A DNA stretch of 64,000 nucleotides from Candidatus Mediterraneibacter caccogallinarum (GCA_019120245.1 DWVK01000055.1:18869-82868); one strand, 5' to 3'; counted from the stretch's first letter, positions 6,829-59,290 are shown. Made by a program: numbers and translations. The notes: generated by a model from the letters alone, not told the origin.

Positions 6829-6844
6829 GAGAGGTGACTGAAAA

Positions 6845-7777: not shown

Positions 7778-8391
7778 TGAATAAGATTGTAAAAAATACA
7801 TTGATCCTGACAGCGATCACGGTGGTATCGGGACTTCTTCTCGGCGTTGTCTACGGCATTACAAAAGAACCTATCGCGGAAGCGCAGGAGAATACAAAGC
7901 AGGAGGCATACAGGTCCGTGCTGTCTGATGCCTCGTCTTTTGAGACGATGGAAGATTTTGACGCGGCGGACGCGGCTTCGATTCTGGAAGAAAATGGGTA
8001 TTCCTCTGATGAGATCACGGAAGTGGCGGAGGGGATCGACGACAGCGGCGAGACAGTCGGATATGTTGTCAACGTGATGTCCCACGAAGCCTATGACGGA
8101 GATCTGGAAGTTTCTGTCGGGATTGCGGCGGACGGAACGGTCAAGGGAATCGAGATGCTTTCCATCAGTGAGACTGCTGGTCTCGGAATGAAGGCGGATG
8201 AGGCCGAGTTCAAGGATCAGTTCAAGGATAAAAATGTAGAGAAGTTTACATATACAAAATCCGGCGAGAGCGGAGACGATAAGATCGACGCCATCAGCGG
8301 TGCGACGATCACGACAAATGCCGTGACCAATGCGGTGGACTCTGCGCTGGTATATTTTCAGAATGAGTTAGGAGGCGTTGTCAATGAATAA
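7777..8391 (+). CDS. rnfG: Rnf complex subunit G (FMN-binding)
   Basis: N-terminal TM helix, ETAGLG, flavinylation motif DAISGAT; ATG overlaps rnfD stop. Confidence 0.95.
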   Translation: MNKIVKNTLILTAITVVSGLLLGVVYGITKEPIAEAQENTKQEAYRSVLSDASSFETMEDFDAADAASILEENGYSSDEITEVAEGIDDSGETVGYVVNVMSHEAYDGDLEVSVGIAADGTVKGIEMLSISETAGLGMKADEAEFKDQFKDKNVEKFTYTKSGESGDDKIDAISGATITTNAVTNAVDSALVYFQNELGGVVNE

Positions 8392-9106
8392 GTGCACAGA
8401 GCGGATTTTCAACGGCCTTGTCAAGGAAAATCCGACGTTTGTCCTGATGCTCGGCATGTGTCCGACGCTTGCGGTCACTACGTCCGCGGTCAACGGAATC
8501 GGCATGGGACTTTCTACGACGGCCGTGCTCGTTATGTCGAACATGCTGATCTCCATGCTGAGAAAGATCATCCCGGATTCTGTCAGAATGCCGGCGTTCA
8601 TCGTTGTCGTGGCGTCTTTCGTCACAATTGTGGATTTCCTTCTGGAAGGCTTTGTCCCGAGTCTCTATGATTCTCTCGGACTGTACATTCCTCTGATCGT
8701 CGTGAACTGTATCATCCTCGGAAGGGCAGAGAGCTACGCATCGAAAAATCCGGTCCTCCCGTCAATCTTCGACGGACTTGGAATGGGACTGGGATTTACA
8801 GTGGGTCTTACCTGCATCGGTATCGTAAGAGAGCTGATCGGATCGGGAATGATCTTCGGCATGCAGGTCCTCCCGGATTCTTATGTCCCGATAACGATCT
8901 TCATCCTTGCACCGGGCGCTTTCTTCGTACTCGCGTGCCTTGTGGCGCTTCAGAATAAGATCAAGAGAAATCTTGCGAAGAAGGGCAGAAAGGTGCCGGA
9001 GAGCGCCGGATGCGGCGAGGGATGCGCCGCCTGCGGAAACCGTGCGGCGTGCAGCGGACACATGTTTCTCGATGTGACAGAGAAAAAAGAGAATGGACAG
9101 GAATAG
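8384..9106 (+). CDS. rnfE: Rnf complex subunit E
   Basis: LGMCPTLAVT, IPLIVVNCIILGRAE. Confidence 0.96.
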   Translation: MNKCTERIFNGLVKENPTFVLMLGMCPTLAVTTSAVNGIGMGLSTTAVLVMSNMLISMLRKIIPDSVRMPAFIVVVASFVTIVDFLLEGFVPSLYDSLGLYIPLIVVNCIILGRAESYASKNPVLPSIFDGLGMGLGFTVGLTCIGIVRELIGSGMIFGMQVLPDSYVPITIFILAPGAFFVLACLVALQNKIKRNLAKKGRKVPESAGCGEGCAACGNRAACSGHMFLDVTEKKENGQE

Positions 9107-9118
9107 GAGGAGACTGAT

Positions 9119-9721
9119 ATGGGAGAACAAATACAGAATCTTTTGCTGATCGCGGTCGGCTCCGCGTTTGTAAATAATGTGGTGCTCAGCCAGTTTCTTG
9201 GAATCTGTCCCTTCCTGGGAGTGTCAAAGAATGTAAAGACTGCTGCCGGCATGGGAAGCGCCGTGGTGTTTGTCATCACCATCGCTTCTTTTGTCACGGG
9301 ACTGATCTACAAGTTCATACTTGGAAACCCGAATATCATGGGCGGAGAGCTGGACTATCTGAATACGATCGTGTTCATCCTCGTGATCGCGGCGCTGGTA
9401 CAGTTTGTGGAGATGGTGCTGAAGAAATCCATGCCTGCTCTCTACAATGCGCTTGGAGTGTACCTTCCCCTGATCACGACGAACTGTGCGGTGCTCGGTG
9501 TGGCGCTGACGAACGTGCAGGAGGGATATGACATCCTCACCGGAGTCGTCAACGGTTTTGCCACAGCGGCGGGATTCCTCGTATCTATCGTACTGATGGC
9601 GGGGATCCGTGAGAAGATCGAGCACAATGACATTACGGAATCATTTCAGGGGACGCCGATCGTCCTTGTGACGGCAGGTCTGATGGCGATCGCGTTCTTC
9701 GGATTTTCAGGATTGATATAG
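9119..9721 (+). CDS. rnfA: Rnf complex subunit A
   Basis: NNVVLSQFLGICPFLG, YLPLITTNCAVLG. Confidence 0.96.
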   Translation: MGEQIQNLLLIAVGSAFVNNVVLSQFLGICPFLGVSKNVKTAAGMGSAVVFVITIASFVTGLIYKFILGNPNIMGGELDYLNTIVFILVIAALVQFVEMVLKKSMPALYNALGVYLPLITTNCAVLGVALTNVQEGYDILTGVVNGFATAAGFLVSIVLMAGIREKIEHNDITESFQGTPIVLVTAGLMAIAFFGFSGLI

Positions 9722-9734
9722 GAGGACAGAAGAT

Positions 9735-10532
9735 ATGGGTATTACCGGAATTATTTTAGCTGCCGTGATAGTCGGCGGCACAGGACTTTTTATCGGCGTC
9801 TTCCTTGGAATTGCCGGGAAAAAATTTGCTGTGGAAACGGATGAGAGAGAGGATGCGATCCTCGAGGTGCTCCCCGGAAACAACTGCGGCGGATGCGGAT
9901 ATGCCGGGTGCTCCGGCCTTGCCGCGGCGATCGTGGCAGGCGAGGCAGAGGTCGGCGGCTGTCCCGTCGGCGGCGCTCCTGTCGCAGAGCAGATTGGAAA
10001 GATCATGGGCGTCGATGCCGGTGCGCAGGAGAGAAAGACCGCATTTGTAAAATGCGGAGGAACCTGTGAGAAGGCAAAGAATGAATATGAATACTATGGC
10101 ATCAAAGACTGTGTCATGGCAGCCCAGATGCAGGACGGAGGAGCAAAAGGATGTGCTTACGGCTGCCTCGGCTACGGCTCCTGTGTAAAGGCGTGTCCGT
10201 TTGATGCGATCCATATTGTGGACGGCATTGCGGTTGTGGACAGGGAAGCGTGCAAAGCATGCGGAAAATGTGTGTCCGTATGTCCGAAACATCTGATCGA
10301 GCTGATCCCGTACAAGCAGCAGACCTTTGTACAGTGCAGCTCGAATGAGAAGGGAAAAGCGCTGATGTCGGTGTGCGAAGTCGGCTGTATCGGATGCCGC
10401 CTGTGCGAAAAGAACTGCGAGGCAGGGGCGGTCACGGTCAACAATTTCCTGGCACATATCGATGCAGATAAATGCACCGGCTGCGGTGTGTGCGCGGAAA
10501 AGTGCCCGCGGAAGATCATAAAATGCATATAA
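9735..10532 (+). CDS. rnfB: Rnf complex subunit B (polyferredoxin)
   Basis: LPGNNCGGCGYAGC and several CxxCxxCxxxCP motifs; last gene of the rnfCDGEAB order. Confidence 0.96.
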   Translation: MGITGIILAAVIVGGTGLFIGVFLGIAGKKFAVETDEREDAILEVLPGNNCGGCGYAGCSGLAAAIVAGEAEVGGCPVGGAPVAEQIGKIMGVDAGAQERKTAFVKCGGTCEKAKNEYEYYGIKDCVMAAQMQDGGAKGCAYGCLGYGSCVKACPFDAIHIVDGIAVVDREACKACGKCVSVCPKHLIELIPYKQQTFVQCSSNEKGKALMSVCEVGCIGCRLCEKNCEAGAVTVNNFLAHIDADKCTGCGVCAEKCPRKIIKCI

Positions 10533-46256: not shown

Positions 46257-47540
46257 ATGAGTTATAAAAGATTAACCCCCTGTATCTTTATCAGGGGAGG
46301 AAAAGCAGTAAAATGGTTCGACGACAGGACTGTGGTCTCGGATGATGTGATCGAGCTGGCGAAACAGTACAGTGAGAAGGGAGCGGACGAACTGATTGTT
46401 TTTGACCTTTCTGATTCCGACGAAGAGCACGATGAGTCGATCGACCTGATCAAGAAAATACACCGTGTCATCAGTATCCCGATGATCGCAGGGGGAAATA
46501 TACGAAGGACAGAGGATGTGAAAAAGATCCTCTATGCAGGCGCAAAGCGGGCAGTACTGAACTTCTCAAAGCGGCTGTCCATCGATCTGATCGAGGAAGT
46601 GGCGAAGCGGTTCGGAAAAGAGCGCATCGCAGTGTCCCTCAATGATTTTGACACTCTGTTCAAGCAGCAGCATCTGATCGAGGAATACAGCACGGAGATC
46701 GTGTTCATGCACCGCCTGGACCTGAACTCTGTCATGAACATGACAAAGCTTCCTTGCGTTGTCCTCACAGATACAATGAAGGAGAGCGAGATACTCCGGA
46801 TCCTGAAATGTGACGGCGTGAAAGGCGTATCCGGAATGTTCGTGAGCCGGACTGATATGGACTTCAATGCGTTCAAGGATGTCTGCATGGAGAATGGAAT
46901 CCAGATGACTTCTTTTGAGAGCCTGATGGATTTCAGTGAATTCAAGCTGAATTCTGACGGGCTGATCCCGGTCATCGTGCAGGACTACAAGACAAACGAA
47001 GTGCTGATGATGGCCTACATGAACGAGGAGGCGTTTGACCATACGGTCAAGACAGGACGGATGACATATTACAGCCGGAGCCGTCAGTGCCAGTGGGTGA
47101 AAGGCGAGACTTCCGGACATTTCCAGTATGTAAAATCCATTGCCGCGGACTGTGACAAGGATACACTCCTTGCCAAAGTAGAGCAGGTAGGCGCGGCGTG
47201 CCATACAGGAAATCGTTCCTGCTTCTATACAACGATCGTGGGCTCGGATTATGACAGCAAGAATCCGCTTCAGGTATTCGATGAGGTCTACGATACGATC
47301 GTTGACCGCAGAGAGCATCCGAAGGAAGGCTCCTATACAAACTATCTGTTCGAGAAGGGAATCGACAAGATCCTGAAAAAGGTAGGAGAAGAGGCGACAG
47401 AGATCGTGATCGCAGCAAAGAACCCGAATCCGGAGGAAGTAAAATATGAGATCTGTGACTTCCTCTACCATGCGATGGTGCTCATGGTGGAACGGGGCGT
47501 GACCTGGGAAGACATCACGAAGGAGCTGGCGGACCGCTAG
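46257..47540 (+). CDS. hisIE: Bifunctional HisI/HisE with an N-terminal degenerate HisF-like domain
   Basis: N-terminus aligns with HisF ([22 protein letters not shown]); HisI motifs KGETSG, DCDKD, ACHTG; HisE motifs YTNYL, KKVGEE, DFLYH. Confidence 0.92.
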
Positions 47541-47566
47541 TATCCTGAGAAGCTGACGGAATACGG

Positions 47567-47644
47567 AAAACAGCCGGAAGGAAATAGTGCATACAGGGAC
47601 CTGATTGTTTCCTGTTCTGCACGGTATTTCCTTCCGGCTGTTTT
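47567..47644. terminator. Long hairpin, probable bidirectional terminator between hisIE and hypE
   Basis: Perfect 20-bp inverted repeat AAAACAGCCGGAAGGAAATA / TATTTCCTTCCGGCTGTTTT with further inner pairing. Confidence 0.8.
47585..47594. repeat. Left copy of 10-bp direct repeat TAGTGCATAC flanking the hyp-ech block
   Basis: Identical 10-mer at 58877-58886. Confidence 0.4.
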
Positions 47645-47687
47645 AACGTTTGACCTCGTCCATGCCTGATGGCGGAAGTGCCTGATC

Positions 47688-48707
47688 CTAACAGATCCGG
47701 GGAAGCTGCATCCCGCTCAGTTTGGAGAGGATCCTGGTCCCGCCGATGGGAGTTCTGAGCAGGACTCTGCCGGGAAGATCCTCGGTTACAGTGCCGATCC
47801 GGGCAGCATGCTCTCCCCCGGGGACAGAACGCATGGCAGAGAGAAGTCTGTCCGCGGCCTCCGGCGCACAGACGGCCAGCATCCTTCCCTCGCAGGCGCA
47901 GTAGAGCGGATCCAGTCCGAGGATATCGCAGGCCGCTTCCACCTCAGGATCTATGGGGACTGCTGTCTGCTCCAGCTCAATGGAGAACGGCATGCCCTCC
48001 GTAAATTCGTTCAGTGTGGTGGCAATCCCTCCACGGGTGGGATCTCTGAGGATCCTCACAGCCTCCGAAATGGCGGGATCAAGGACGGCTGAGGCAGTCC
48101 TTAAGAGAGACTGGCAGTCGGAGCGCAGCGGACTGTCTTCCCGGAGAAGACCGGCGCGCTCCATCATCACAGCGGCTCCGTGCCTGCCTGCAGTGCCGCT
48201 GATCAGGACTGCATCCCCGGGGCGGATCCCGGAGCGGCCGGGAAGAGCGGCACGGCGGAAGCCGATGCCTGCTGTGTTGATATAGATCCCATCGCCTTTT
48301 CCTGATTCTACTACCTTCGTATCTCCGGTGACGATCGAGACGCCGGAACCGGCAGCTTCCTCAGCGATGGACATGATGATCTCCTTGAGATCGGAAATCA
48401 GAAATCCTTCTTCAAGGATAAAGGAAAGGCTCAGATATTTTGGAGTTCCTCCCGCCATACAAAGATCGTTGACCGTGCCGCAGACAGAAAGTTTCCCGAT
48501 ATCGCCGCCGGGGAAACGCCAGGGAGATACCACGAAGCTGTCTGTAGAAAATACAAGAGTGTCCGCTCCCTGCAGCACGGCCCCGTCCCCCAGCTGGGCA
48601 AGCGCCGGATTGTCAAGCGCAGGAAGGAGCAGCGACTCGATCAATTCTGATGTCTTGAGCCCTCCACTTCCATAATCCAGTGTAATTCGTTCATCCATAT
48701 TGCTCAA
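47688..48707 (-). CDS. hypE: Hydrogenase maturation protein HypE
   Basis: GSGG, TDSFVV, GDIGKL, GDTKVV, RDPTRGG, CEG, C-terminal PRIC. Confidence 0.97.
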   Translation of the reverse strand: MSNMDERITLDYGSGGLKTSELIESLLLPALDNPALAQLGDGAVLQGADTLVFSTDSFVVSPWRFPGGDIGKLSVCGTVNDLCMAGGTPKYLSLSFILEEGFLISDLKEIIMSIAEEAAGSGVSIVTGDTKVVESGKGDGIYINTAGIGFRRAALPGRSGIRPGDAVLISGTAGRHGAAVMMERAGLLREDSPLRSDCQSLLRTASAVLDPAISEAVRILRDPTRGGIATTLNEFTEGMPFSIELEQTAVPIDPEVEAACDILGLDPLYCACEGRMLAVCAPEAADRLLSAMRSVPGGEHAARIGTVTEDLPGRVLLRTPIGGTRILSKLSGMQLPRIC

Positions 48708-48715
48708 ACCTCCTG

Positions 48716-49819
48716 TTATGATGGATCATATTCATACTGATATGCTGCAGCGCACGCTCCTTCACCGGACACCATGCATGGACCGACCGGATTCTCAGGC
48801 GAACAGATCCTGCCGAAGAGAGGACATCCGGAGGGAGCCTGAACTCCGCGGATGACCTGGGCGCAGCGGCATCCTGGAATCTCTTTTCCCGGTGCCGGAC
48901 AGAGGGAGAATTTTTTCCATGCATCCCATGGAGCATATTTCTCCTGCAGTATATAGCCGCTTTCCTCGATCCGGCCGAGTCCCCGCCAGTCAGCAGAGGA
49001 AACAGTGAATACCTGTTCCATCAGACGGAGGGCAGAAACATTGCCCTCTGCATGCACCAGGCGGGTGTATTCGTTCTTCAGGGCGGGGCGTCTGTCCCTG
49101 ACCATCCGGACAAGCTCCAGGATGGAGCCGAGCAGATCTGCGGGCTCAAAGCCGCTCACGACGCCCGGGAGACCGTAATCCCGGGGAAGAAAAGCAAATG
49201 CATCTGAACCGGTGACCGCAGCAACATGACCGGGACATAAAAATCCGTCCACAGCAAAATCCGGTGACTCGATGAGGGAGCGCAGGGCAGGTTCGGTCCT
49301 TTTCAGAAGGCAGAGGACGGAAAAGTTCTTTACGCGGCGCTCAGCTGCCTCCAGGATGCAGGCGGCAGTCCCGGGGGCCGTGGTCTCGAATCCGACTCCC
49401 AAAAAGACTATTTCCAGCTCAGGATGTGCTTCTGCAAGATGCACTGCATCCACCGGAGAGTAGACCGACTCCACCAGAGCTCCCTGTGCCCGGCGGCTCA
49501 GAAGGCTGTCTCCCTGCCTGGAACCCGGGACCCGGAGCAGATCTCCATAACTGGCGATCAGGACGCCGGGGCGCTGTGCCAGTTCAAGGATCATGTCGAT
49601 CATGCCCGCAGGAGTCACGCAGACCGGACATCCTGGGCCGGAGAGAAGACGGACTGACGCCGGCAGGACACTGCGGATCCCGCTGCGGGCGATCGCCATT
49701 GTATGGGTGCCGCAGATCTCCATCAGGCGGATCTGGCCGGAACCGTCTGAACAGTGTTCGATCTTTCTGAGGATTTCAGCCGCATCCTTTGGATTTTTGA
49801 ATAAGTTTTCATAAAGCAT
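48716..49819 (-). CDS. hypD: Hydrogenase maturation protein HypD
   Basis: MEICGTH, GPGCPVC, GFETTAP, PCMVSGEGAC. Confidence 0.97.
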   Translation of the reverse strand: MLYENLFKNPKDAAEILRKIEHCSDGSGQIRLMEICGTHTMAIARSGIRSVLPASVRLLSGPGCPVCVTPAGMIDMILELAQRPGVLIASYGDLLRVPGSRQGDSLLSRRAQGALVESVYSPVDAVHLAEAHPELEIVFLGVGFETTAPGTAACILEAAERRVKNFSVLCLLKRTEPALRSLIESPDFAVDGFLCPGHVAAVTGSDAFAFLPRDYGLPGVVSGFEPADLLGSILELVRMVRDRRPALKNEYTRLVHAEGNVSALRLMEQVFTVSSADWRGLGRIEESGYILQEKYAPWDAWKKFSLCPAPGKEIPGCRCAQVIRGVQAPSGCPLFGRICSPENPVGPCMVSGEGACAAAYQYEYDPS

Positions 49820-50027
49820 CTTTGATTTCCTCCAGAAGCTGCAGATTCTCCAGCGCTTCTTTTTCCGACATTTTTTCGATGGCGAATCCGGCATGTACCA
49901 TGACATATTCGCCGGGGGCCGCATCCTGTATGAAATCGATCCGGACAGACTGAGTCAGCCCGCCGGCCTCGCAGTCTGCGGTTTTTCCATTGATCTGTTT
50001 AATCTTCATTGGCATTGCTAAACACAT
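49809..50027 (-). CDS. hypC: Hydrogenase maturation chaperone HypC
   Basis: N-terminal MCLAMP (Cys2), VMVHAGFAI. Confidence 0.96.
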   Translation of the reverse strand: MCLAMPMKIKQINGKTADCEAGGLTQSVRIDFIQDAAPGEYVMVHAGFAIEKMSEKEALENLQLLEEIKDAL

Positions 50028-52329
50028 GATTCATACTCCTTTTCTTCTGGGCAATCGCAAGCTGTCCGAGGCAGATCCCCTCGTCGTTAGGGGAGACCTG
50101 TCTGTGGGGATAAACTGTAAATCCTTTTTCCTCCAGCAGAGAAGTGATCCCTGTCAGAAGAAAGCGGTTCTGGAATACTCCGCCGGAAAGGACGACGGGG
50201 AGTTCCTTTTTGTTCAGGGCAGTGCATTGATCCAGCGCCATGCAGCACATTGTTGACATAAAACGAAGTGCAATGGCGCCGCGGTCCCTGTGCTCCTTCA
50301 GGTCACTTAGAATCTCCGAGATCATCGGACGGGTATCAAATACGCGGAGTCCGTTCTCCTCCGTCAGATAAAATCGGCGGGAATAGGAAAGCCCGTAAAG
50401 GGATTCCGTATCTTCACCGGGCGCTTCCACAGGAGACAGGGCTTCTGTCAGAGCAGCGCCTTCTCCCTCATAAGAAACTTCCGATCTCTGCAGAAGAAGA
50501 GCACATATTCCGTCAAAGAGGCGTCCAGCGCTGCTGGCAGGAGGAGAAAACTCCGGATTCAGCAGAGAGCGGAGCATACGGCATTTTTCCGGTGGAAGAG
50601 GAACGCAGGAGAAATCTTCCGTCCCGGTGTCGCAGACAAGGGCCAGAGCGATCCGTCCGATCTCGCGGACCGCCCGGTCTCCTCCGGGAAGGAGGACCGG
50701 ACGGATGGAGCCTCTGCGCAGAAAGTTTCCAAAGTCCCCTTCCAGGAATTCACCACCCCAGATGGTGCCGTCTGTGCCGAGACCTGTCCCGTCCCAGACG
50801 ATACCGAAACAGGGACCGTTCAATCCGTTATCCGCCATGCAGGATGCCATGTGAGCCCAATGATGCTGCACGCGGATCAGCGGCACACCCTCGGCGGCCG
50901 CGGCTCCTGCGGCTTCCTGTGTGGACAGGTAATCCGGATGGAGGTCGCAGACATAGAGACGGGGCTGCAGGCGGAATAATTCGCGGTAAGTCCCGAGGGC
51001 ATCCTTATAGTGCTGAAGTGTCTCACCGTTTTTCAAGTCTCCGATATGGGGACTCAAAAAAGCCTGAGAGCCCCGTCCCAGGGCAAAAGAAGCCTTCTGT
51101 TCCGCACCCATGGCGAAAATGCCGTCCACATCCGAATCAAGACAGACAGGCAGGGGAACATATCCGCGGCTCCTGCGGAAAAAATAAGGTCTGCCCCGAA
51201 ATTCCGCCGCAAGAGAATCGTCACAGCGGTTCTGGATCGGACGGTCGTGCAGAAGGAAGCCGTCTGCGATCCCCTGCAGATGGGAGAGCGCCTCGGAATT
51301 GTCTGTGATCACAGGACATCCGGGAACGTTTCCACTGGTCATGACAAGGGAGTCCGGTCCTCCGTATACTCCGTCAAGGAGGAGCATATGGAGCGGCGTG
51401 TAAGGGAGCATGACGCCAAGCCTCGGGCTGAAGCTGAGTTCTGGGAAAGCATCCCTGTCCTTCTTGGCAAGCAGGATGATGGGGCGGGCGGGACTGGAGA
51501 GAAGCTCTTCTTCTTTTGGCGTGATCCGGCAGATGCGCCGGATCGCTCCCGTCGAGCGGCACATCAGCGCCAGCGGCTTTTCTGCCCGGTGTTTTCTGGC
51601 ACGAAGCCGTTTTACTGCAGCGGGATTTAAAGCGTCACACGCCAGATGGATCCCGCCCAGCCCTTTGACTGCGAGGATCCCGCCTGCCGCCAGCAGCTGC
51701 TGGGAAGCACGGAACGGATCGCCCTCCGACTCTGTGAGCGATGTACCGTCCACATAGAATGCGCGGGGACCACATGCGGGACAGCAGTCCGGCTGAGCGT
51801 GATATCTGCGGTCGCTGATGTCGGAATACTCTTCATGGCAGTCACCGCACATGACAAACCTCTCCATAGTGGTCCGTTTTCTGTCATAGGGCAGACTGCG
51901 GATGATCGTATAACGGGGGCCGCAGTTCGTGCAGTTGATAAAAGGGTAGCGGTATCTCCGGTCAGAGGGATCATACAGCTCTGCCGCACATTCCGGACAG
52001 ACGGCAAGATCAGGAGAGACAAGAGTACTTCCCGGCAGGATCCGGCTCTCTCTGATCTCGAATCTGTCATAGTCTCTGTCATCTTCTTCCGGCACGGCAT
52101 CGATCTTCTCGATTACAGCCATGGGCGGAGCCGAGGACCTGACAGCGTTGAGAAACTGTTCCAGGCACCGGCTGCTGCCGGATGCGACTCCCTCCAGTCC
52201 GCGGGATGTATTCCTCACCCATCCGCAGATATGATATTCTTCCGCAAGCCGGTGCAGGAACGGGCGGAAGCCGACCCCCTGGACTACTCCCTCGATGGTA
52301 ATGCGGAGGCACTTGCGGGAAGCGCTCAT
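49999..52329 (-). CDS. hypF: Carbamoyltransferase HypF
   Basis: VQGVGFRPF acylphosphatase domain, two Zn fingers (CPEC...NCTNCGPR; CGDC...CCPACGP), KGLGG, DLHPDY, QHHWAH, DGTG. Confidence 0.97.
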   Translation of the reverse strand: MSASRKCLRITIEGVVQGVGFRPFLHRLAEEYHICGWVRNTSRGLEGVASGSSRCLEQFLNAVRSSAPPMAVIEKIDAVPEEDDRDYDRFEIRESRILPGSTLVSPDLAVCPECAAELYDPSDRRYRYPFINCTNCGPRYTIIRSLPYDRKRTTMERFVMCGDCHEEYSDISDRRYHAQPDCCPACGPRAFYVDGTSLTESEGDPFRASQQLLAAGGILAVKGLGGIHLACDALNPAAVKRLRARKHRAEKPLALMCRSTGAIRRICRITPKEEELLSSPARPIILLAKKDRDAFPELSFSPRLGVMLPYTPLHMLLLDGVYGGPDSLVMTSGNVPGCPVITDNSEALSHLQGIADGFLLHDRPIQNRCDDSLAAEFRGRPYFFRRSRGYVPLPVCLDSDVDGIFAMGAEQKASFALGRGSQAFLSPHIGDLKNGETLQHYKDALGTYRELFRLQPRLYVCDLHPDYLSTQEAAGAAAAEGVPLIRVQHHWAHMASCMADNGLNGPCFGIVWDGTGLGTDGTIWGGEFLEGDFGNFLRRGSIRPVLLPGGDRAVREIGRIALALVCDTGTEDFSCVPLPPEKCRMLRSLLNPEFSPPASSAGRLFDGICALLLQRSEVSYEGEGAALTEALSPVEAPGEDTESLYGLSYSRRFYLTEENGLRVFDTRPMISEILSDLKEHRDRGAIALRFMSTMCCMALDQCTALNKKELPVVLSGGVFQNRFLLTGITSLLEEKGFTVYPHRQVSPNDEGICLGQLAIAQKKRSMNHVFSNANED

Positions 52330-52982
52330 GAGCGTGCGCCCTCGATCTTTCCGGCCAGATACTCCGCGAGAGCATCCAGGCCTTCCCCGCTGCGGCTGCT
52401 GACACAGAAGAGGGGAGCATCAGGATTCACGCTGTCGTAATTAGCGGAGACTTTCTTCTCATCAAATTCAAAGTATGGCATCATATCATATTTATTCAGC
52501 ACAAGACAGTCCGTGTCCGTGAACATCAGGGGATATTTTTCCACCTTGTCGTCGCCCTCCGGGATGCTCAGTATGGTGATCCTCAGGGATTCGCCGATGC
52601 GGAACTCGGCGGGACATACCAGATTGCCGATATTTTCCACAAAAATAACATCCAGCTCATCCAAGGGAAGAAAGGGGAGGATGTTCTGAATGCTCATCGC
52701 TTCGATATGACAGGCGCCGTCCGTGTTCAGCTGGACTGTCGGAACCCCCAGGTCTGCGATCCTGTCCGCATCCACCTGCCCCGCGATATCCCCCTCGATG
52801 ACTCCGATGCGGAATTTGTCCTTCAGCCTGCCGATCAGGGAAGTGATCAGGCTTGTCTTGCCTGCTCCCGGGCTTCCCATTACATTGATCATGCAGATCC
52901 CGTATTCGGCCAGCCTGGCCCTTACGTCTTCACTGACGTCTTCATTCCAGTCCATGATCTGGTGCAGTACTTTTATCTCCAT
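52326..52982 (-). CDS. hypB: Hydrogenase nickel incorporation GTPase HypB
   Basis: GSPGAGKT, ACH, ENIGNLVCPA, EGDDKVEKYP, NKYD. Confidence 0.97.
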   Translation of the reverse strand: MEIKVLHQIMDWNEDVSEDVRARLAEYGICMINVMGSPGAGKTSLITSLIGRLKDKFRIGVIEGDIAGQVDADRIADLGVPTVQLNTDGACHIEAMSIQNILPFLPLDELDVIFVENIGNLVCPAEFRIGESLRITILSIPEGDDKVEKYPLMFTDTDCLVLNKYDMMPYFEFDEKKVSANYDSVNPDAPLFCVSSRSGEGLDALAEYLAGKIEGARS

Positions 52983-53325
52983 CGATATCTACCTCCATGC
53001 TCTTGATATAAAACTCTTTCCCGGAAAGGATCTGCAGCCTGAGACTTCCACAGTGAGGACAGGCGAGATGATGGGGAGTGATCTCTCCGTCTAGTCCGCA
53101 GTCCCGGCACCTGACCTTCACAGGGAGAAATTCCGACTCGATGAGTGCTCCCTCAGCGATCGTGCCCTCGGACAGCATGTCCAGATAAATCTGGATGCAG
53201 TCCGGGACGAGCCCGTTGAGCTGTCCGATGCAAAGCCTGATGACACGGATCTTCTCCGCATGCTGTTTTTTTGCTTCCCGGATGCAGTGGTCCAGGAGAT
53301 GTTCTGTAATACTGAGTTCGTGCAA
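52942..53325 (-). CDS. hypA: Hydrogenase nickel metallochaperone HypA
   Basis: MHELSI (TTG start), two CxxC motifs (CRDC, CPHC). Confidence 0.96.
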   Translation of the reverse strand: MHELSITEHLLDHCIREAKKQHAEKIRVIRLCIGQLNGLVPDCIQIYLDMLSEGTIAEGALIESEFLPVKVRCRDCGLDGEITPHHLACPHCGSLRLQILSGKEFYIKSMEVDIDGDKSTAPDHGLE

Positions 53326-53396
53326 GATTCCATCCTCCAGGAAATCGATTAAAACTTAATTCTGTCATCTGTCCGGAAATGACTCCGAACATGTCT

Positions 53397-53475
53397 ATTC
53401 TAGCACATTTTTTTGGAAAGAAAACAGGAAAAAAACAAATTCACTATTGTAAAATTTTAAAAACCGGATTATAAC
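53397..53475. promoter_or_regulatory. Divergent promoters for hyp (-) and ech (+)
   Basis: AT-rich 230-bp intergenic region; plus TTGTAA-17-TATAAC (53447-53475); minus extended -10 TGC-TAGAAT (53405-53397). Confidence 0.55.
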
Positions 53476-53557
53476 TGATATAGACAATATTTTTTGGCTA
53501 AAACAGAGTATCAATCAAAGTATTGTACAAAAAAATGACAGAAAGGACGGGCAGTTT

Positions 53558-55453
53558 ATGACAATAATACTATTTTTGATTGGTATTCCGGCAGTGCTTG
53601 CGGTAATATTTCCCTTTTTGCACAATCAGCGCATAAGAGGGTATGTAGTGTACACGGGCGCCGGGATCGTGATGCTGACAACGGTTGTGTTCATCGCTCA
53701 GTGGATAGGGAACGGCGCGGAAACGATGATGCTCTATCCGTCAACAGAATTTGTGGATCATCTGATGACGGTGGGGGATCTTTTTCTTATGTGCCTGATC
53801 GTGTATCTGAGCATTAAGTATGGGAAGATCCTTCCAATCCTGCTCTCCGTCGGACAGACGGCTTTGGTACTCTACATAGAATTTACGACGGAACTCCCGG
53901 AAGCCCCGCACATGACAGTGGACTGGCTGACGATCCTGATGTGCCTTATCATTGCGTTCATCGGAGGATTTATCTGTATCTATACGGTAGGTTATATGAA
54001 GGGGTATCACAGGCATCATGAGGATGTACAGGACAGACAGCCGTTTTTCTTTTCCATGCTGTTTCTGTTCCTTGCGGCCATGTTCGGCCTTGTCCTGTCA
54101 CAGAACCTGATCTGGATGTATTTCTTCTGGGAGGTCACCAGCGTGATCTCATTCCTGATGATCGGATATACACGCTCGGACGAGGCTGTCTCCAACAGTT
54201 TTATGGCACTGTGGATGAACCTTCTGGGCGGCTGCGGATTTGCAGTTGCGATCGCGTGGATGGCGAAGATGGGAGGTTCCGTCCAGCTCCTTGACGTGGT
54301 CGCGGCAGGAGCTCAGCTGCCTCTGTTCTGTCTGTCTCTGGCAGGACTTACGAAGTCGGCCCAGCTTCCGTTCTCATCCTGGCTTGTCGGAGCCATGGTG
54401 GCGCCGACGCCTTCCAGCGCGCTGCTCCACAGCGCCACGATGGTGAAGGCGGGCGTTTATCTGCTGATCCGCATCTCGCCTGCCCTGGAGGGCAATCTGA
54501 CCGGGATCATCGTATCCAGTATCGGCGGACTGACCTTTATCATGGCAAGTATGATGGCCATCGCACAGAATGACGGAAAGAAGGTACTTGCATTTTCCAC
54601 GATCTCGAATCTCGGACTGATCGTCGGCTGCGCCGGAATCGGTGTAGAGGAGACCGTCTGGGGCGCCGTGTTCCTGATGATCTTCCATTCCGTGAGCAAG
54701 TCCATGCTGTTCCAGTCTGTGGGTGCGGCAGAGAATACACTCGGATCCAGAGATATCGAGGATATGCACGGCCTGATCATCAAGGTCCCGAAACTGGCAT
54801 ATATCATGGGGATCGGGATAGCAGGGATGTACCTTGCCCCCTTTGGAATGCTGATCTCCAAGTGGGTGGCGCTTAGAGCTTTTGTAGATTCAGGGAACTT
54901 CGTCCTTGTTCTTTTCATCGCATACGGAAGCGCGACAACAATGTTTTACTGGACCAAGTGGCTGGCGAAGCTGATTTCCTATCATGTTCCGAGAGAGAGC
55001 GTGCAGGATGTCACGCGGAAGGATGAGTACATATCCATGTTTTTCCACGCCGTGGTCATGATCCTGCTCTGTCTGCTCCTTCCGCTTATCGCAAAATGGC
55101 TGGTGAACCCGATCGTGAAAGTACTTTTCGGAAATTCAAAGGATGTGCTCTCCATGAGCGTGCTCGCCACAATGGCGATCATGCTTGTGTCGGTATTCAT
55201 CGTGCCGGCGGTCATGTTTTTTGTGAGCAGGGCCTCCCGGAGAGAACTTGTCCCGATCTATATGAACGGGATCAATGAAGGTGACAACCGTTTCTTCACG
55301 AACAGCTTCGGAGAAAAGGAACATCTGTATCTGAGCAACTGGTATCTGCGCTTTGAATTCGGGCGGCGGCATCTGCGGATCCCGTCGATCTTGATCGCAG
55401 CCGCAGTCCTTGTCCTCGGATTCTGTCTTGTGATAGGAGGGGTGAATATCTGA
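53558..55453 (+). CDS. echA: Energy-converting hydrogenase subunit A (NuoL/MrpA-like antiporter subunit)
   Basis: FFWEVTS, KSAQLPF, AMVAPTPSSALLHSATMVKAG, KKVLAFST, FHSVSK. Confidence 0.92.
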   Translation: MTIILFLIGIPAVLAVIFPFLHNQRIRGYVVYTGAGIVMLTTVVFIAQWIGNGAETMMLYPSTEFVDHLMTVGDLFLMCLIVYLSIKYGKILPILLSVGQTALVLYIEFTTELPEAPHMTVDWLTILMCLIIAFIGGFICIYTVGYMKGYHRHHEDVQDRQPFFFSMLFLFLAAMFGLVLSQNLIWMYFFWEVTSVISFLMIGYTRSDEAVSNSFMALWMNLLGGCGFAVAIAWMAKMGGSVQLLDVVAAGAQLPLFCLSLAGLTKSAQLPFSSWLVGAMVAPTPSSALLHSATMVKAGVYLLIRISPALEGNLTGIIVSSIGGLTFIMASMMAIAQNDGKKVLAFSTISNLGLIVGCAGIGVEETVWGAVFLMIFHSVSKSMLFQSVGAAENTLGSRDIEDMHGLIIKVPKLAYIMGIGIAGMYLAPFGMLISKWVALRAFVDSGNFVLVLFIAYGSATTMFYWTKWLAKLISYHVPRESVQDVTRKDEYISMFFHAVVMILLCLLLPLIAKWLVNPIVKVLFGNSKDVLSMSVLATMAIMLVSVFIVPAVMFFVSRASRRELVPIYMNGINEGDNRFFTNSFGEKEHLYLSNWYLRFEFGRRHLRIPSILIAAAVLVLGFCLVIGGVNI

Positions 55454-56313
55454 TGAATGTCTGTTTTGTAATCGCATACTTACTTTTTGCTCCCCTGCTC
55501 GGGGGACTCCTCGACGGCGTGGATCGGATCATCAGCGCCCGGATGCAGCGGCGCAGAGGTCCCAGTATCCTGCAGCCGTTCTATGACCTTGGGAAATTGT
55601 TCTCAAAGGAACTGATCGCGGTAAACAACGTCCAGTTCCTTCTGAACCTCAGCTATCTTGTGATCCTGGTGATCGCGGGTGCGCTCCTGTTCGCAGGCGC
55701 CGATCTGCTGATGACACTGTTCATCCTCAGCACGGCTGATATGTTCCTGATCATGGCGGCATCCAGCGATTCATCGCCTTATGCCAATATGGGCGCGAGC
55801 AGAGAGATGCTCCAGATGATGGCATATGAGCCGCTGACCCTTCTGATCGCGGTAGGATTCTATCTGACAGAAGGCTCCTTCCAGGTATCAGCGATCATTG
55901 ACGCTCCGGTCAGCGCGATCCTCTGGATGCCCGGACTCTTTGTCGGATTTATGTATACGGCGGCGATCAAACTGAGAAAATCGCCTTTTGATCTGTCAAC
56001 AAGCCATCACGCCCATCAGGAGATGGTAAAGGGGATCACAACAGAGATGTCAGGGCCGGCGCTGGCGATCATGAATATCGCGGAGTACTATGAGCTTGTC
56101 CTTCTCCTTGGCATTTTCTGCCTGTTCTTTATCAACAGCACCTGGTGGAGCTGGATCGTGGCGGTCATTGCCTGCGGACTGGTGTTTTTCATCGAGACTC
56201 TCTGGGATAATGTGAGTGCCAGAGTGAAGTGGAAATCACTGCTCTACAGCTGCTGGATCGTTACTCTGGTGGCGGGCGGAGTCAATATTCTGATTCTGAT
56301 GCTGATCAAATAG
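55453..56313 (+). CDS. echB: Energy-converting hydrogenase subunit B (NuoH-like)
   Basis: DRIISARMQRRRGP, QPFYDLGKL, PFDL, HQEMVKG. Confidence 0.92.
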   Translation: MNVCFVIAYLLFAPLLGGLLDGVDRIISARMQRRRGPSILQPFYDLGKLFSKELIAVNNVQFLLNLSYLVILVIAGALLFAGADLLMTLFILSTADMFLIMAASSDSSPYANMGASREMLQMMAYEPLTLLIAVGFYLTEGSFQVSAIIDAPVSAILWMPGLFVGFMYTAAIKLRKSPFDLSTSHHAHQEMVKGITTEMSGPALAIMNIAEYYELVLLLGIFCLFFINSTWWSWIVAVIACGLVFFIETLWDNVSARVKWKSLLYSCWIVTLVAGGVNILILMLIK

Positions 56314-56330
56314 GCAGGAGGTAGATCGTT

Positions 56331-56768
56331 ATGAATAAAGTGTCAAAATCACCATGGCTGCTCCACTATGATGCGAGCAGCTGCAATGGATGCGATATTG
56401 AAGTGCTCGACTGTCTGACGCCAAAGTACGATATCGAGCGTTTCGGAATCATCAATACAGGGGATCCCTTCCAGGCGGATATCCTGCTCATAACAGGAGG
56501 CGTCAACAGCCAGACCGAGAGCGTGGTAAAGCAGCTGTACAGCCAGATGCCGGAGCCGAAGGTTGTCGTGGCTGTCGGGATCTGTGCCTGTACCGGAGGG
56601 ATTTTCAAAGAGTGTTATAATATCAGGGGCGGGATCGACACCGTGATCCCTGTGGACGTATATGTCCCGGGATGCGCGGCACGTCCGGAATCCATTATCG
56701 ACGGAGTAGTCAAAGCACTGGCGGTACTGGACGAGAAGCAGAAGGCGATGAAGGAAGAGCGGAGGTGA
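56331..56768 (+). CDS. echC: Energy-converting hydrogenase small subunit C (NuoB-like)
   Basis: SCNGCDIE, ADILLITG, GICACTGGIF, VYVPGC. Confidence 0.94.
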   Translation: MNKVSKSPWLLHYDASSCNGCDIEVLDCLTPKYDIERFGIINTGDPFQADILLITGGVNSQTESVVKQLYSQMPEPKVVVAVGICACTGGIFKECYNIRGGIDTVIPVDVYVPGCAARPESIIDGVVKALAVLDEKQKAMKEERR

Positions 56769-56773
56769 CGGAG

Positions 56774-57127
56774 ATGGACTACAAGAGCGAGATAAAGAAG
56801 ATCACCAGAGCACAGTTTTTCCACGCGATCGTACAGATGAAAGCAGACAACTGGCGCCTGGTCCAGATCTGTGCGGTCTCTCTTGACCACGGATATGAGA
56901 TGAGCTATTCATTCTGCGGAGGCAGGGACTACCGGATGGTGACACTGCGGCTTGAAGTGGGGGAGGACGAGGAGATCGCGAGCATTACCCAGATCTATCC
57001 ATGCGCTTCCCTGCAGGAAAATGAAGCGGCAGAGCTGTTCGGTGTGAAGATAAGAAATATCGATCCGGATTATCATGACAAGCTGTATCGGATCGACGCT
57101 GTCGCACCATTTAAGAAGAAGGAGTAG
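56774..57127 (+). CDS. echD: Energy-converting hydrogenase subunit D (NuoC-like)
   Basis: WRLVQICA, YSF, SITQIYPCASLQENEAAELFG; position between echC and echE. Confidence 0.88.
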   Translation: MDYKSEIKKITRAQFFHAIVQMKADNWRLVQICAVSLDHGYEMSYSFCGGRDYRMVTLRLEVGEDEEIASITQIYPCASLQENEAAELFGVKIRNIDPDYHDKLYRIDAVAPFKKKE

Positions 57128-57131
57128 AACT

Positions 57132-58211
57132 ATGGCTAAGAGAAGTATCGTACCTTTCGGTCCGCAGCATCCTGTACTGCCGGAGCCTGTACATCTGGAT
57201 CTGGTACTGGAGGATGAGACGGTGGTCGGCGCGATCCCGAGCATCGGCTTTGTTCACAGGGGACTGGAAAAACTGGTAGAAAAAAGAGATTATAAACAAT
57301 ATGTCTATATTGCCGAGCGAGTCTGCGGGATCTGCAGCTGCGGCCACGGGCTGGGCTACTGCGAATCCGTGGAACAGGTGATGGGGATTGAAGTGCCTGA
57401 CAGGGCAAGATATCTGAGAACGATCTGGATGGAGATGAGCCGTGTGCACAGTCATCTGCTCTGGCTCGGACTTCTGGCAGACGCGATGGGATTTGAAAGT
57501 CTGTACATGGAGAGCTGGAGACTCAGAGAAAAGATCCTCGATATGTTTGATGAGACGACAGGTGGAAGGCTCATCCATTCAGTGAACTGTGTCGGCGGCG
57601 TACAGAAAGATATGGACAGCACGATGCTGGAGCATATCCTGCGCGCGGTGGATGAAATCCAGGGGGAGATGAAGCCTCTTGTGGAGACATTCATGCAGGA
57701 TTACACCGTACAGAGCCGTCTGAAAGGGACGGGGATCCTTACGAGAGACAGCGCCATCGAACTCGGCGCGGTGGGACCTGTCCTGCGTGCGTGCGGTGAA
57801 CCGTACGATGCACGGCGCCTGGGATATGCGGCATACAGGGATCTTGCCGTAGAACCTATTACGGAGAAAGACGGCGATTCTTTCGCCCGCTGTAAGGTGA
57901 GGCTGAGAGAGCTCTTCCAGGCGTTTGATCTGATCCGTGAAGCAATCGGAAAGATCCCCGGGGGAGAGATCAGTGTTCCGGTAAAGGGCAATCCTTCCGG
58001 AGAATATTTTATGCGGATCGAGCAGCCCAGGGGAGAGGCGATCTACTACGTCAAGGGGAACGGGACAAAATATCTGGACCGCTTCCGCATGAGGACGCCG
58101 ACAACAAGCAACCTCTCTCCGCTGGTTGAGATGCTCAAGGGCTGCCAGCTGTCTGACGTGCCCCTTCTGATCCTGACCATTGATCCGTGCATCAGCTGCA
58201 CAGAGAGGTAG
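57132..58211 (+). CDS. echE: [NiFe] hydrogenase large subunit EchE (group 4)
   Basis: PFGPQHP, GFVHRGLEK, L1 ERVCGIC, EQPRGE, L2 DPCISC ending TER-stop. Confidence 0.95.
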   Translation: MAKRSIVPFGPQHPVLPEPVHLDLVLEDETVVGAIPSIGFVHRGLEKLVEKRDYKQYVYIAERVCGICSCGHGLGYCESVEQVMGIEVPDRARYLRTIWMEMSRVHSHLLWLGLLADAMGFESLYMESWRLREKILDMFDETTGGRLIHSVNCVGGVQKDMDSTMLEHILRAVDEIQGEMKPLVETFMQDYTVQSRLKGTGILTRDSAIELGAVGPVLRACGEPYDARRLGYAAYRDLAVEPITEKDGDSFARCKVRLRELFQAFDLIREAIGKIPGGEISVPVKGNPSGEYFMRIEQPRGEAIYYVKGNGTKYLDRFRMRTPTTSNLSPLVEMLKGCQLSDVPLLILTIDPCISCTER

Positions 58212-58273
58212 GAAACGACTGGAATAAATGAGATCACACCGCTTTCAGCGGAGAAACGGAGCAGTGGCAAGGT

Positions 58274-58834
58274 ATGGAAGATAAGACGAGAGTATTTACA
58301 TTAGCGGGAAGAGTCCTGAGGAATCTCTTCCGAAAGCCGGCAACAGTGCAGTACCCGTTTCAGCCGGCAGAATATCCGGAGCGGATGCGGGGACATGTGG
58401 AGATACAGATCAGCAGCTGTATCTGCTGCGGGCTCTGCGCGAGATCCTGTCCTTCGACAGCGATCAAGGTAGACAGAGCGGCAGGAACATGGACGATCGA
58501 CCGGTTCGACTGTGTGCAGTGCGGCAGCTGCGTTGCCGCCTGCCCGAAGAAATGTCTGAGCATGGCAAAGGGGTATACAGAACCGGGAGTCGCAAAAAAG
58601 AGCGAGACATTTATCAAACCGAAGGAAGAACAGCCGGCGGCTGCCGCTTCCGGAGGGGGAAAACCGTCCGTTGACGTTGAGAAATGCGTCTACTGTACGC
58701 TCTGTGCAAAGAAGTGCCCACAGGAGGCGATCCTGGTGGACCGGAAAGAAAAGATCTGGAAACTGGACGAAGAAAAATGTGTGCAGTGCGGGATCTGTGC
58801 ATCGGCATGTCCGAAACATGCGATCGAGATGTAG
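58274..58834 (+). CDS. echF: EchF-like ferredoxin subunit with four CxxCxxCxxxCP motifs
   Basis: LFRKPATVQYP...RGH start; CICCGLC, CVQCGSC, CVYCTLC, CVQCGIC. Confidence 0.9.
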   Translation: MEDKTRVFTLAGRVLRNLFRKPATVQYPFQPAEYPERMRGHVEIQISSCICCGLCARSCPSTAIKVDRAAGTWTIDRFDCVQCGSCVAACPKKCLSMAKGYTEPGVAKKSETFIKPKEEQPAAAASGGGKPSVDVEKCVYCTLCAKKCPQEAILVDRKEKIWKLDEEKCVQCGICASACPKHAIEM

Positions 58835-58876
58835 GATAAAAAAGAAAATAGAAGAAGTGCAGGAACAGAAAAGTTC

Positions 58877-58886
58877 TAGTGCATAC
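58877..58886. repeat. Right copy of 10-bp direct repeat TAGTGCATAC flanking the hyp-ech block
   Basis: Identical 10-mer at 47585-47594. Confidence 0.4.
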
Positions 58887-58928
58887 GGCAGGGGCATAGG
58901 TTATGATGAACAGACTTATGCCCCTGTC
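58887..58928 (+). terminator. Hairpin after echF (possible terminator)
   Basis: CAGGGGCATA / TATGCCCCTG 10-bp stem; weak T tail. Confidence 0.5.
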
Positions 58929-58972: not shown

Positions 58973-59290
58973 ATGAACGATGCTGAGATGCGCCGCCGTG
59001 AACTCCTGCGGCAGACGAGGAAACTGTATGATGAGAAGCCGGATATTCCGGCTGTACATCCGCGGTACGGGAATATCTACCACAGTCTCTACGAGAACGA
59101 GGAGGAACAGGAAGCCTCCGGAAGCAGTTTTTACATAAGGCTTGTGATCGGGATTCTGTGCTTTATCTGCTTCGTCTATATGGATCAGAGCAAAGTGAGC
59201 GTAGCTGAAGTGGACAGCACTGCGATCGTGAACCAGATTGAGAAAGATATGGATGCGGAGACGATAAAAGAAGTGTGGAAGCAGCTGTAG
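58973..59290 (+). CDS. Hypothetical single-pass membrane protein
   Basis: RBS GAGG; charged N-terminus with PAVHPRY, then a TM helix (IRLVIGILCFICFVYM). Confidence 0.72.
   Translation: MNDAEMRRRELLRQTRKLYDEKPDIPAVHPRYGNIYHSLYENEEEQEASGSSFYIRLVIGILCFICFVYMDQSKVSVAEVDSTAIVNQIEKDMDAETIKEVWKQL

Follow-up and report, generated by a model that had tools for sequence, protein, structure and literature searches.

A divergent hyp-ech cassette encoding a predicted Ech-type [NiFe]-hydrogenase, inserted at the end of the his operon in Candidatus Mediterraneibacter caccogallinarum

A 64,000-nucleotide stretch of DNA from Candidatus Mediterraneibacter caccogallinarum (GCA_019120245.1 DWVK01000055.1:18869-82868), hereafter the window, carries a cassette of twelve genes, hypABFCDE and echABCDEF, between the histidine (his) operon and a TIGR03960 radical-SAM gene. 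Judged by its sequence, the cassette very probably encodes a complete, functional energy-converting hydrogenase (Ech) of six subunits, together with six Hyp proteins that would build its Ni-Fe(CN)2CO centre. The same reading holds that the cassette is a long-resident, unit-like element, put at the his junction in the common ancestor of three genomes. Positions below are counted from the first letter of the window.

All twelve genes are intact, with no frameshifts or internal stops in the open reading frame (ORF) listing and the profile searches, and they form two divergent blocks of six, hyp on the minus strand (47688-53325) and ech on the plus strand (53558-58834). Read from 53325 down to 47688, the first block runs hypA-B-F-C-D-E, and each of its products keeps its catalytic motifs: MHE and two CxxC motifs in HypA; a P-loop and a CH motif in HypB; an N-terminal Met-Cys in HypC; CGTH, GPGCPVC and a C-terminal Cys cluster in HypD; PRIC in HypE; and the acylphosphatase, zinc, YrdC and Kae1 domains in HypF. 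Pfam and NCBIfam assign the second block, in the order A-B-C-D-E-F, to NuoL-, NuoH-, NuoB-, NuoC-, NuoD- and NuoI-like subunits, which is the six-subunit set of an Ech. EchC presents its ligands as C18 and C21, GICAC at residues 83-87 and PGC (Cys115). EchA, which can be aligned to MrpA and NuoL structures, keeps the signatures of the antiporter family, namely the Glu of transmembrane helix 5 in WEVTS, the Lys of helix 7 in TKSAQ, LHSATMVKAG and the Lys of helix 12 in HSVSKS; its conserved antiporter residues are numbered E192, K266 and K381. The gene identities, the divergent layout and the full ligand set given by a first-pass annotation of this DNA are thus borne out.

The large subunit EchE has its Ni ligands in R63-V-C-G-I-C (RVCGICSCGH at 63-72) and in a C-terminal DPCISCTER at 351-359, and its length is that of nearly all of its 120 nearest homologues. 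In HydDB and in Greening 2016, group-4 large subunits are said to carry an L1 motif, C[GS][ILV]C[AGNS]xxH, and an L2 motif, [DE][PL]Cx[AGST]Cx[DE][RL]; EchE matches both and has all four Ni-ligand Cys. The chain stops three residues past the last Cys, with no cleavable extension. Since the protein already finishes with DPCISCTER, a maturation endopeptidase would not be needed, and twelve genes would therefore suffice for a self-sufficient cluster. The description of the cluster as self-contained agrees with its surroundings: among 65 related loci, no other hydrogenase-related gene is conserved beside the cassette, the downstream genes being unrelated housekeeping genes, and a nickel transporter, a protease, pyruvate:ferredoxin oxidoreductase (PFOR), formate dehydrogenase or carbon monoxide dehydrogenase (CODH) was not found next to it in any of the 65.

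Architecture, motifs and the link to Butyrivibrio, as opposed to placement in a reference tree, support the assignment of the enzyme as Ech-type and group 4e-like. EchE is 64% identical to the Ech large subunit of Butyrivibrio fibrisolvens and merely 34-36% identical to HycE and HyfG, and homologues 78-79% identical to it bear the Joint Genome Institute name 'ech hydrogenase subunit E'. Word-indexed homologue searches brought up near relatives only, and the set from a 50%-representative search is without sequences of Methanosarcina, Caldanaerobacter and Carboxydothermus; a 45%-identical representative (P0245) matched, in a genome scan, three loci of the metagenome-assembled genome (MAG) type. 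A different group-4 enzyme, whether formate hydrogenlyase (FHL), the CO-dependent Coo or the non-catalytic Ehr, is extremely unlikely, even though EchE is about equally similar to the solved large subunits of MBH (6cfw_L, E = 2e-72) and FHL (7z0s_E, E = 2e-67) and NCBIfam has no Ech-specific model. EchE belongs to neither of these two solved types, and a PDB search with it returns no Ech structure. The large subunit of FHL (group 4a) is a NuoC-NuoD fusion of ~570 amino acids (aa) accompanied by HycB and FdhF, whereas EchE, at 359 aa, is unfused and EchD is a separate gene. Coo (group 4c) has the order cooMKLXUH, in which the gene for the ferredoxin subunit precedes those for the NuoC- and NuoD-like subunits, and is linked to cooS and cooF, whereas here the ferredoxin subunit comes last (C-D-E-F). 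Ehr has lost the Ni-ligand Cys that EchE retains in full. Neither FdhF nor HycB, CooS, CooF or CODH is encoded in the window flanks, and no such partner lies downstream of the cassette in the 65 related loci. On these grounds the first-pass choice of Ech over FHL, Coo and Ehr holds.

The cassette occupies this chromosomal position only in the window genome and in its two closest relatives, uncultured Mediterraneibacter BRZ_RF bin127 and Ca. M. faecigallinarum (loci L001/L081 and L014/L080). Empty sites, in which hisG-D-B-IE is followed by the TIGR03960 gene within 440-760 bp, are present in at least 15 genomes. A gene for a 105-aa membrane protein is present at every empty site and, in other genomes, always comes after hisIE. 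The his terminator hairpin, CAGGGGCATA...TATGCCCCTG, lies to the right of echF in the window; at the empty sites L107 and L137 it immediately follows hisIE. Because this terminator and the small ORF are both displaced to the right of echF, the insert can be delimited to ~47541-58888, with its entry point past the hisIE stop codon and ahead of the his terminator.

Elsewhere in the genus the cassette lies at other positions, in several genomes alongside an empty his junction. Two of these are isolate genomes: in Clostridium sp. Marseille-P3244, the cassette (1.50 Mb) and the junction (2.10 Mb) are ~0.6 Mb apart on the same scaffold, and in M. massiliensis they are ~1.2 Mb apart (0.45 Mb and 1.65 Mb); and in Ca. 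M. norwichensis and R. turbiniformis the cassette is on a different contig from the empty junction. The neighbours downstream of echF within the genus represent at least 5-6 unrelated contexts. Together with a homologous module on a Butyrivibrio plasmid, described below, these placements justify calling the cassette lodged and portable, as was first proposed. Its internal arrangement is far more constant: hypA and echA are divergent neighbours in 60 of the 79 loci anchored on EchE, most sufficiently long loci show all twelve genes alike, and the same arrangement recurs across Mediterraneibacter, Eisenbergiella, other Lachnospiraceae and Oscillospirales (Gemmiger, Subdoligranulum). A near relative outside the three-genome clade, uncultured Mediterraneibacter E0_RP0 bin151, has glycosyltransferase and GtrA-like genes before echA and no hyp operon there (L004, 1-6133), so the hyp-ech pairing can be broken; the his/TIGR03960 junction of the same genome (L128) is empty.

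The junction itself has the look of a flexible hotspot: in other species, 2-8 kb of unrelated cargo separates the small ORF from the TIGR03960 gene (L082, L083, L100, L112, L119, L125, L126, L132 and L144), for example BglG with a phosphotransferase system and 6-phospho-beta-glucosidase, GH13, GH5 and GH43 enzymes with an AraC regulator, amino-acid ABC transporters, or a LytR-family gene. Given a junction that varies in many genomes, the his/TIGR03960 position might be the ancestral one, from which the cassette was deleted or moved in all other lineages. We regard this as very unlikely: the cassette sits there in three close relatives only, the genomes with direct hisIE-small ORF-TIGR03960 adjacency include Schaedlerella (L109) and species that carry the cassette elsewhere, and an ancestral position would demand many independent precise excisions.

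Insertion in one lineage, empty sites in relatives and variable genomic contexts are also what a foreign island recently acquired from a distant donor would show, and the first-pass annotation had read the cassette as probably horizontally acquired. Three further points favour such an origin: the Butyrivibrio homologue is plasmid-borne, ech and housekeeping distances within the genus correlate only moderately, and horizontal transfer of group 4 hydrogenases is reported to be frequent (PMC13582414). A recent foreign origin is nevertheless quite unlikely. The GC content of the ech genes, their GC at third codon positions (GC3; z -0.03 to +1.3) and their synonymous codon usage (z +0.2 to +1.8) are indistinguishable from those of 36 background genes. 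The insert (47541-58888) contains no integrase, transposase, relaxase or tRNA, and no direct or terminal inverted repeats flank it. A 10-nt word, TAGTGCATAC, found near both insert borders was considered as a target-site duplication and set aside as chance, the copy at the right-hand border being missing in L080 and L081.

EchE proteins of the closest loci, from Mediterraneibacter MAGs and isolates, are 80-89% identical, and near-identical DNA occurs in chicken-gut metagenomes. Distances of ech and hyp co-vary (rho = 0.81), in keeping with the behaviour of a unit. The divergence of the cassette likewise argues against recent import. In the 23 genomes that have both loci, the cassette (Ech 0.00-0.24) and the housekeeping genes (0.04-0.30) diverge over a similar range, and the two divergences correlate positively though imperfectly (rho = 0.34 for ech and 0.57 for hyp). 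When concatenated EchA-F are placed in a neighbour-joining tree, Lachnospiraceae and Oscillospirales form separate clades, and the window sequence and its two sisters nest inside Mediterraneibacter. In comparisons with these sisters, synonymous divergence (dS) is 0.8-1.7 for cassette genes and 1.1-1.7 for the flanking TIGR03960, TIGR03936 and rng genes, and the ratio of nonsynonymous to synonymous divergence (dN/dS) is 0.02-0.13 for all twelve genes, a sign of strong purifying selection. Because the dS of the cassette equals that of its flanks, the cassette must already have occupied this site in the ancestor that the three genomes share.

The most parsimonious history therefore makes the cassette an old inhabitant of the genus, and of gut Clostridia at large, that was relocated and lost repeatedly and exchanged now and then, and not a recent foreign import; it would have reached the junction either by relocation within the genome or by transfer from a congener. 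Of the features of a mobile island, presence or absence with a clean empty site is found here, and mobility genes, repeats and deviant composition are not. The term island is thus apt for a lineage-specific positional insertion between hisIE and the his terminator, in a flexible junction, and the part of the claim that made it a horizontally imported foreign element does not stand. Some labels in the Ech tree are out of place, namely Ca. Butyricicoccus avicola and an "Oscillospiraceae" MAG, which may be transfers or artefacts of binning or naming. The taxon labels of L071, L078 and L041 are implausible for this cassette: a 'Moraxellaceae bacterium', a Ca. Merdibacter (Erysipelotrichales) whose contig is 5 kb long, and a Ca. 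Butyricicoccus that nests within Mediterraneibacter; these are either mis-binned contigs or real inter-order transfers.

EchF departs from the standard Ech ferredoxin subunit. Residues 11-104 form a NuoI/MbhN/HycF-like core with two [4Fe-4S] clusters, matching 6cfw_N and 7z0s_F, and an Ala/Gly-rich linker leads to a second, clostridial-type 2x[4Fe-4S] ferredoxin domain at residues ~130-186 (nt 58661-58831), giving four CxxCxxCxxxC motifs in all. The two halves align at 45% identity (E = 3e-19) and have in common a 38-nt DNA repeat of 76% identity, a hint of internal duplication. Related loci encode either a long form of 179-202 aa, nearly always with four cluster motifs, or a short form of 109-163 aa, with two motifs and often a Pro/Ala-rich tail, and both occur even inside Mediterraneibacter and Gemmiger. 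We infer that the extra domain would act as a tethered electron-entry module, and the fusion offers a small, testable structure-function variant. A broader proposal, which we hold only tentatively and as a whole consider rather doubtful, is that the long/short polymorphism may tune which electron donor feeds Ech, that the hisIE/TIGR03960 junction may be a hotspot capturing operon cassettes free of mobility genes, and that hyp-ech may hop between sites and replicons within gut Clostridia without a recognisable mobile element.

The two operons are predicted to be read divergently from sigma-A-type promoters in the AT-rich spacer between hypA and echA. Phylogenetic footprinting of 60 related spacers finds the words of the putative ech promoter to be the most conserved in the intergenic region, TTGTAAAA in 34 and GATTATAA in 27. 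On the hyp side, a candidate extended -10 element, TGTGCTAGAAT, is read from the sequence and is overlapped by the block TAGCACATTT (53401-53410), which recurs in 16 of the 60 intergenic regions. Transcription is predicted to start near 53482 on the plus strand and near 53388 on the minus strand. A generic promoter and terminator scan gave counts no higher than in shuffled sequence and missed the conserved TTGTAA/TATAAC pair. No palindromic operator is evident in the control region, and a search for riboswitches and other RNAs found no Rfam family at gathering thresholds there or in the whole window.

Metatranscriptome contigs from four chicken or gut runs cover the full set of twelve genes (95-100% identity). 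The contigs of three runs are interrupted in the spacer, with hyp-side ends at 53355 and 53374 and ech-side starts at 53498 and 53529, the pattern expected of divergent transcripts. The cassette is thus probably expressed, although carried-over DNA may be among these contigs. Between the convergent hisIE and hypE genes, a hairpin with a perfect stem is likely to serve as a bidirectional terminator, and an analogous hairpin of different sequence is found in L001 and L014. One contig of run X24 joins 47552 to 47631 and so omits 78 nt (47553-47630), most of this hairpin; it looks like a strain variant without it.

The mechanism outlined here draws on the homology of the subunits to modules of complex I, MBH and FHL and on published work about Ech function and its pumping of H+ (PMC11187502, PMC4478896). 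Reduced ferredoxin, from PFOR and similar enzymes, would deliver electrons to EchF, where the tethered 2x[4Fe-4S] domain would lengthen the electron-input wire. From the core clusters of EchF, electrons would pass to the proximal cluster of EchC and on to the [NiFe] site of EchE, where protons would be reduced to H2. The free energy would drive export of H+ (or Na+) through EchB and the antiporter-like EchA, in a process that is reversible in principle. A complete rnfCDGEAB operon lies at 5509-10532 (+), 43 kb upstream of hyp-ech, with all six subunits above NCBIfam cutoffs. With the rnf operon and the cassette both in the window, both ferredoxin-oxidising ion pumps, Rnf and Ech, are encoded, and the reduced-ferredoxin pool could be split between reduction of NAD+ by Rnf and reduction of H+ by Ech.

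Ech enzymes are reversible, and in Methanosarcina Ech runs in the uptake direction. Here, too, the enzyme might work mainly in uptake, with H2 and the membrane potential reducing ferredoxin, for example for biosynthesis or acetogenesis; the gut supplies H2, and some relatives are described as acetogens, such as Faecalicatena acetigenes, which has a homologue (P0057). Mainly uptake is nonetheless improbable, as Wood-Ljungdahl genes, CODH and other ferredoxin-consuming genes are unlinked to the cassette in all 65 contexts and the host is of the sugar-fermenting Lachnospiraceae type with Rnf. Furthermore, in the closest studied case, Pseudobutyrivibrio ruminis, Ech is reported to work beside Rnf, with reduced ferredoxin split between the two, and to evolve H2 (PMC11187502). 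H2 evolution from reduced ferredoxin would be the usual direction in the window organism as well.

Besides the basis of the class assignment given above, several points weigh against the overall account of a functional, expressed and native H2-evolving Ech. The catalytic direction and the coupling ion are ones that we infer from homology. No nickel transporter, PFOR or ferredoxin genes are seen in the window. The codon fit of hypE, hypD and hypF is somewhat atypical (z -2.2 to -3.1) at normal GC3, a deviation that is compatible with a weak expression bias and could mean a different history. Lastly, the metatranscriptome contigs, which may hold carried-over DNA, include one that spans echC into the TIGR03960 gene.

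The closest characterised counterpart is the Ech of rumen butyrivibrios, the published Lachnospiraceae Ech (Hackmann & Firkins 2015, PMC4478896); the presence of Ech together with Rnf in this family has been described in the same paper. A tblastn search of plasmid records finds, on plasmid pNP243 of B. fibrisolvens D1 (L163, record 222-235 kb), an annotated homologous cluster with a divergent hypA, then echABCDEF, then hypFCDE. The two systems, both from Lachnospiraceae, share the order echABCDEF and the divergent hypA, with 74% identity in EchC, 59% in the EchF core and 49% in EchA besides the value for EchE given above, and the window organism resembles the butyrivibrios in having Ech and Rnf together. 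They differ in that the Butyrivibrio module has hypFCDE after echF on the same strand, a short EchF of 128 aa and a location on a secondary replicon, whereas here all six hyp genes form one divergent chromosomal operon and EchF has an extra ferredoxin domain. Plasmid pNP243 is a 243-kb non-mobilizable secondary replicon, and the ech-hyp module on it has no adjacent hypB.

Linkage of ech to hyp genes is established for Firmicutes (Caldanaerobacter, Acetivibrio, Butyrivibrio). The prototype enzymes, Ech of Methanosarcina barkeri and the product of echABCDEF-hypABFCDE in Caldanaerobacter (Thermoanaerobacter) tengcongensis, have the same six-subunit order and an uncleaved large subunit of ~358 aa; they likewise couple ferredoxin:H+ oxidoreduction to ion translocation, and the bacterial cluster has its maturation genes alongside. 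As opposed to the arrangement in the window, the prototype EchF has two [4Fe-4S] clusters only, and the Caldanaerobacter hyp genes are co-directional with ech. The Ech1 and Ech2 enzymes of Thermoanaerobacter kivui are energy-converting, ferredoxin-dependent and H+-pumping (PMC4320612), and Ech2 belongs to HydDB group 4g (PMC13582414). They resemble the enzyme described here in their Firmicute host and in extra FeS modules that extend the electron-input wire; these are separate HycB-like polyferredoxin subunits encoded, with an additional or duplicated EchA, in clusters of 8-9 genes of other order, whereas here there are six genes and the extra FeS clusters are fused to EchF. MBH of Pyrococcus furiosus (6CFW) and FHL of E. 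coli (7Z0S) have homologous catalytic and membrane-anchor modules. MBH has 14 subunits with an Mrp-type module, and FHL has a fused NuoCD large subunit with HycB and FdhF; neither feature is found here.

Table 1 Coordinates of the hyp-ech cassette, its genes and its predicted control elements in the window
Feature	Position	Strand	Description
Inserted segment	47541..58888		Whole hyp-ech cassette, ~11.35 kb, relative to ancestral hisIE / terminator / small ORF / TIGR03960
Hairpin hisIE/hypE	47567..47644		20-bp perfect stem, 38-nt loop, between convergent genes
hypE	47688..48707	-	339 aa; AIRS N and C domains, C-terminal PRIC
hypD	48716..49819	-	367 aa; PF01924, E = 1e-137; CGTH, GPGCPVC, C-terminal Cys cluster
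hypC	49809..50027	-	72 aa; PF01455; N-terminal Met-Cys
hypF	49999..52329	-	776 aa; acylphosphatase, two Zn fingers, YrdC, Kae1-like domains
hypB	52326..52982	-	218 aa; cobW/GTPase match; P-loop GSPGAGKT, CH motif
hypA	52942..53325	-	127 aa; PF01155; MHE Ni site, two CxxC Zn-site motifs
Divergent control region	53326..53557		232 bp, 31% GC against ~52% for the window
Putative hyp promoter	53396..53406	-	Extended -10 element
Putative ech promoter	53447..53475	+	-35 TTGTAA, 17-nt spacer, -10 TATAAC; ~75 nt upstream of echA
echA	53558..55453	+	631 aa; NuoL/MrpA-like antiporter subunit
echB	55453..56313	+	286 aa; NuoH-like membrane subunit
echC	56331..56768	+	145 aa; NuoB-like small subunit, four Cys for the proximal [4Fe-4S] cluster
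echD	56774..57127	+	117 aa; short NuoC-like subunit; start refined to 56774
echE	57132..58211	+	359 aa; NuoD-like [NiFe] large subunit; start refined to 57132
echF	58274..58834	+	186 aa; NuoI-like
Native his-operon terminator hairpin	58889..58926	+	Displaced to the right of the insert; now predicted to terminate ech too

Some gene boundaries needed attention (Table 1). The start of hypD was refined to M36 of its ORF (49819), where the Pfam match and the homologues begin; the ORF itself reaches 49924. The hypA gene has a TTG start preceded by a GGAGGA ribosome-binding site, and hypB has no His-rich tract. The overlaps within the hyp operon are unusually long, with 41 nt for hypA/hypB (52942-52982), 29 nt for hypF/hypC (49999-50027) and 11 nt for hypC/hypD (49809-49819), and the true start of hypB may be a Met further downstream.

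The cassette is flanked on the left by hisZ-G-D-B and then a hisIE fusion, and on the right by TIGR03960, TIGR03936 and RNase G (rng) genes. The rest of the window is ordinary core chromosome, with cmk, ispH, S1, ruvAB, a penicillin-binding protein gene, fakA, recG, a GH36 enzyme and the his genes. The final his gene (46257-47540, +) is a fusion of 427 aa in which residues 228-427 are HisIE and residues 1 to ~150 match the first half of the HisA/HisF barrel only (PF00977, profile positions 1-132 of 228). The operon lacks a full hisA, hisF, hisH and hisC, and the hisIE fusion is 83-89% identical across related genomes. The conserved 105-aa protein, a predicted membrane protein without a family match, is encoded at 58973-59290 (+), in the gap that separates echF from the TIGR03960 gene.

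The first-pass annotation also implied that an Ech is a rarity in a gut bacterium of this kind, which overstates the case: group 4e hydrogenases are reported from 15% of human-gut bacterial species (bioRxiv 10.64898/2026.06.24.733704), and in stool metagenomes, at ~0.06 copies per genome, they are moderately abundant, with a function that is uncharacterised in the gut (PMC12578642). The Ech type is already common in gut Clostridia, and what differs here is the unusual chromosomal position. The locus leaves the current understanding of Ech unchanged and adds to it a well-documented example of Ech together with Rnf from a poultry-gut Lachnospiraceae. It supports chemiosmotic H2 production, beyond that by soluble [FeFe]-hydrogenases, as a contribution to H2 cycling in the gut, and the comparison with empty sites indicates that a complete respiratory module can shift its chromosomal position without mobile-element genes.

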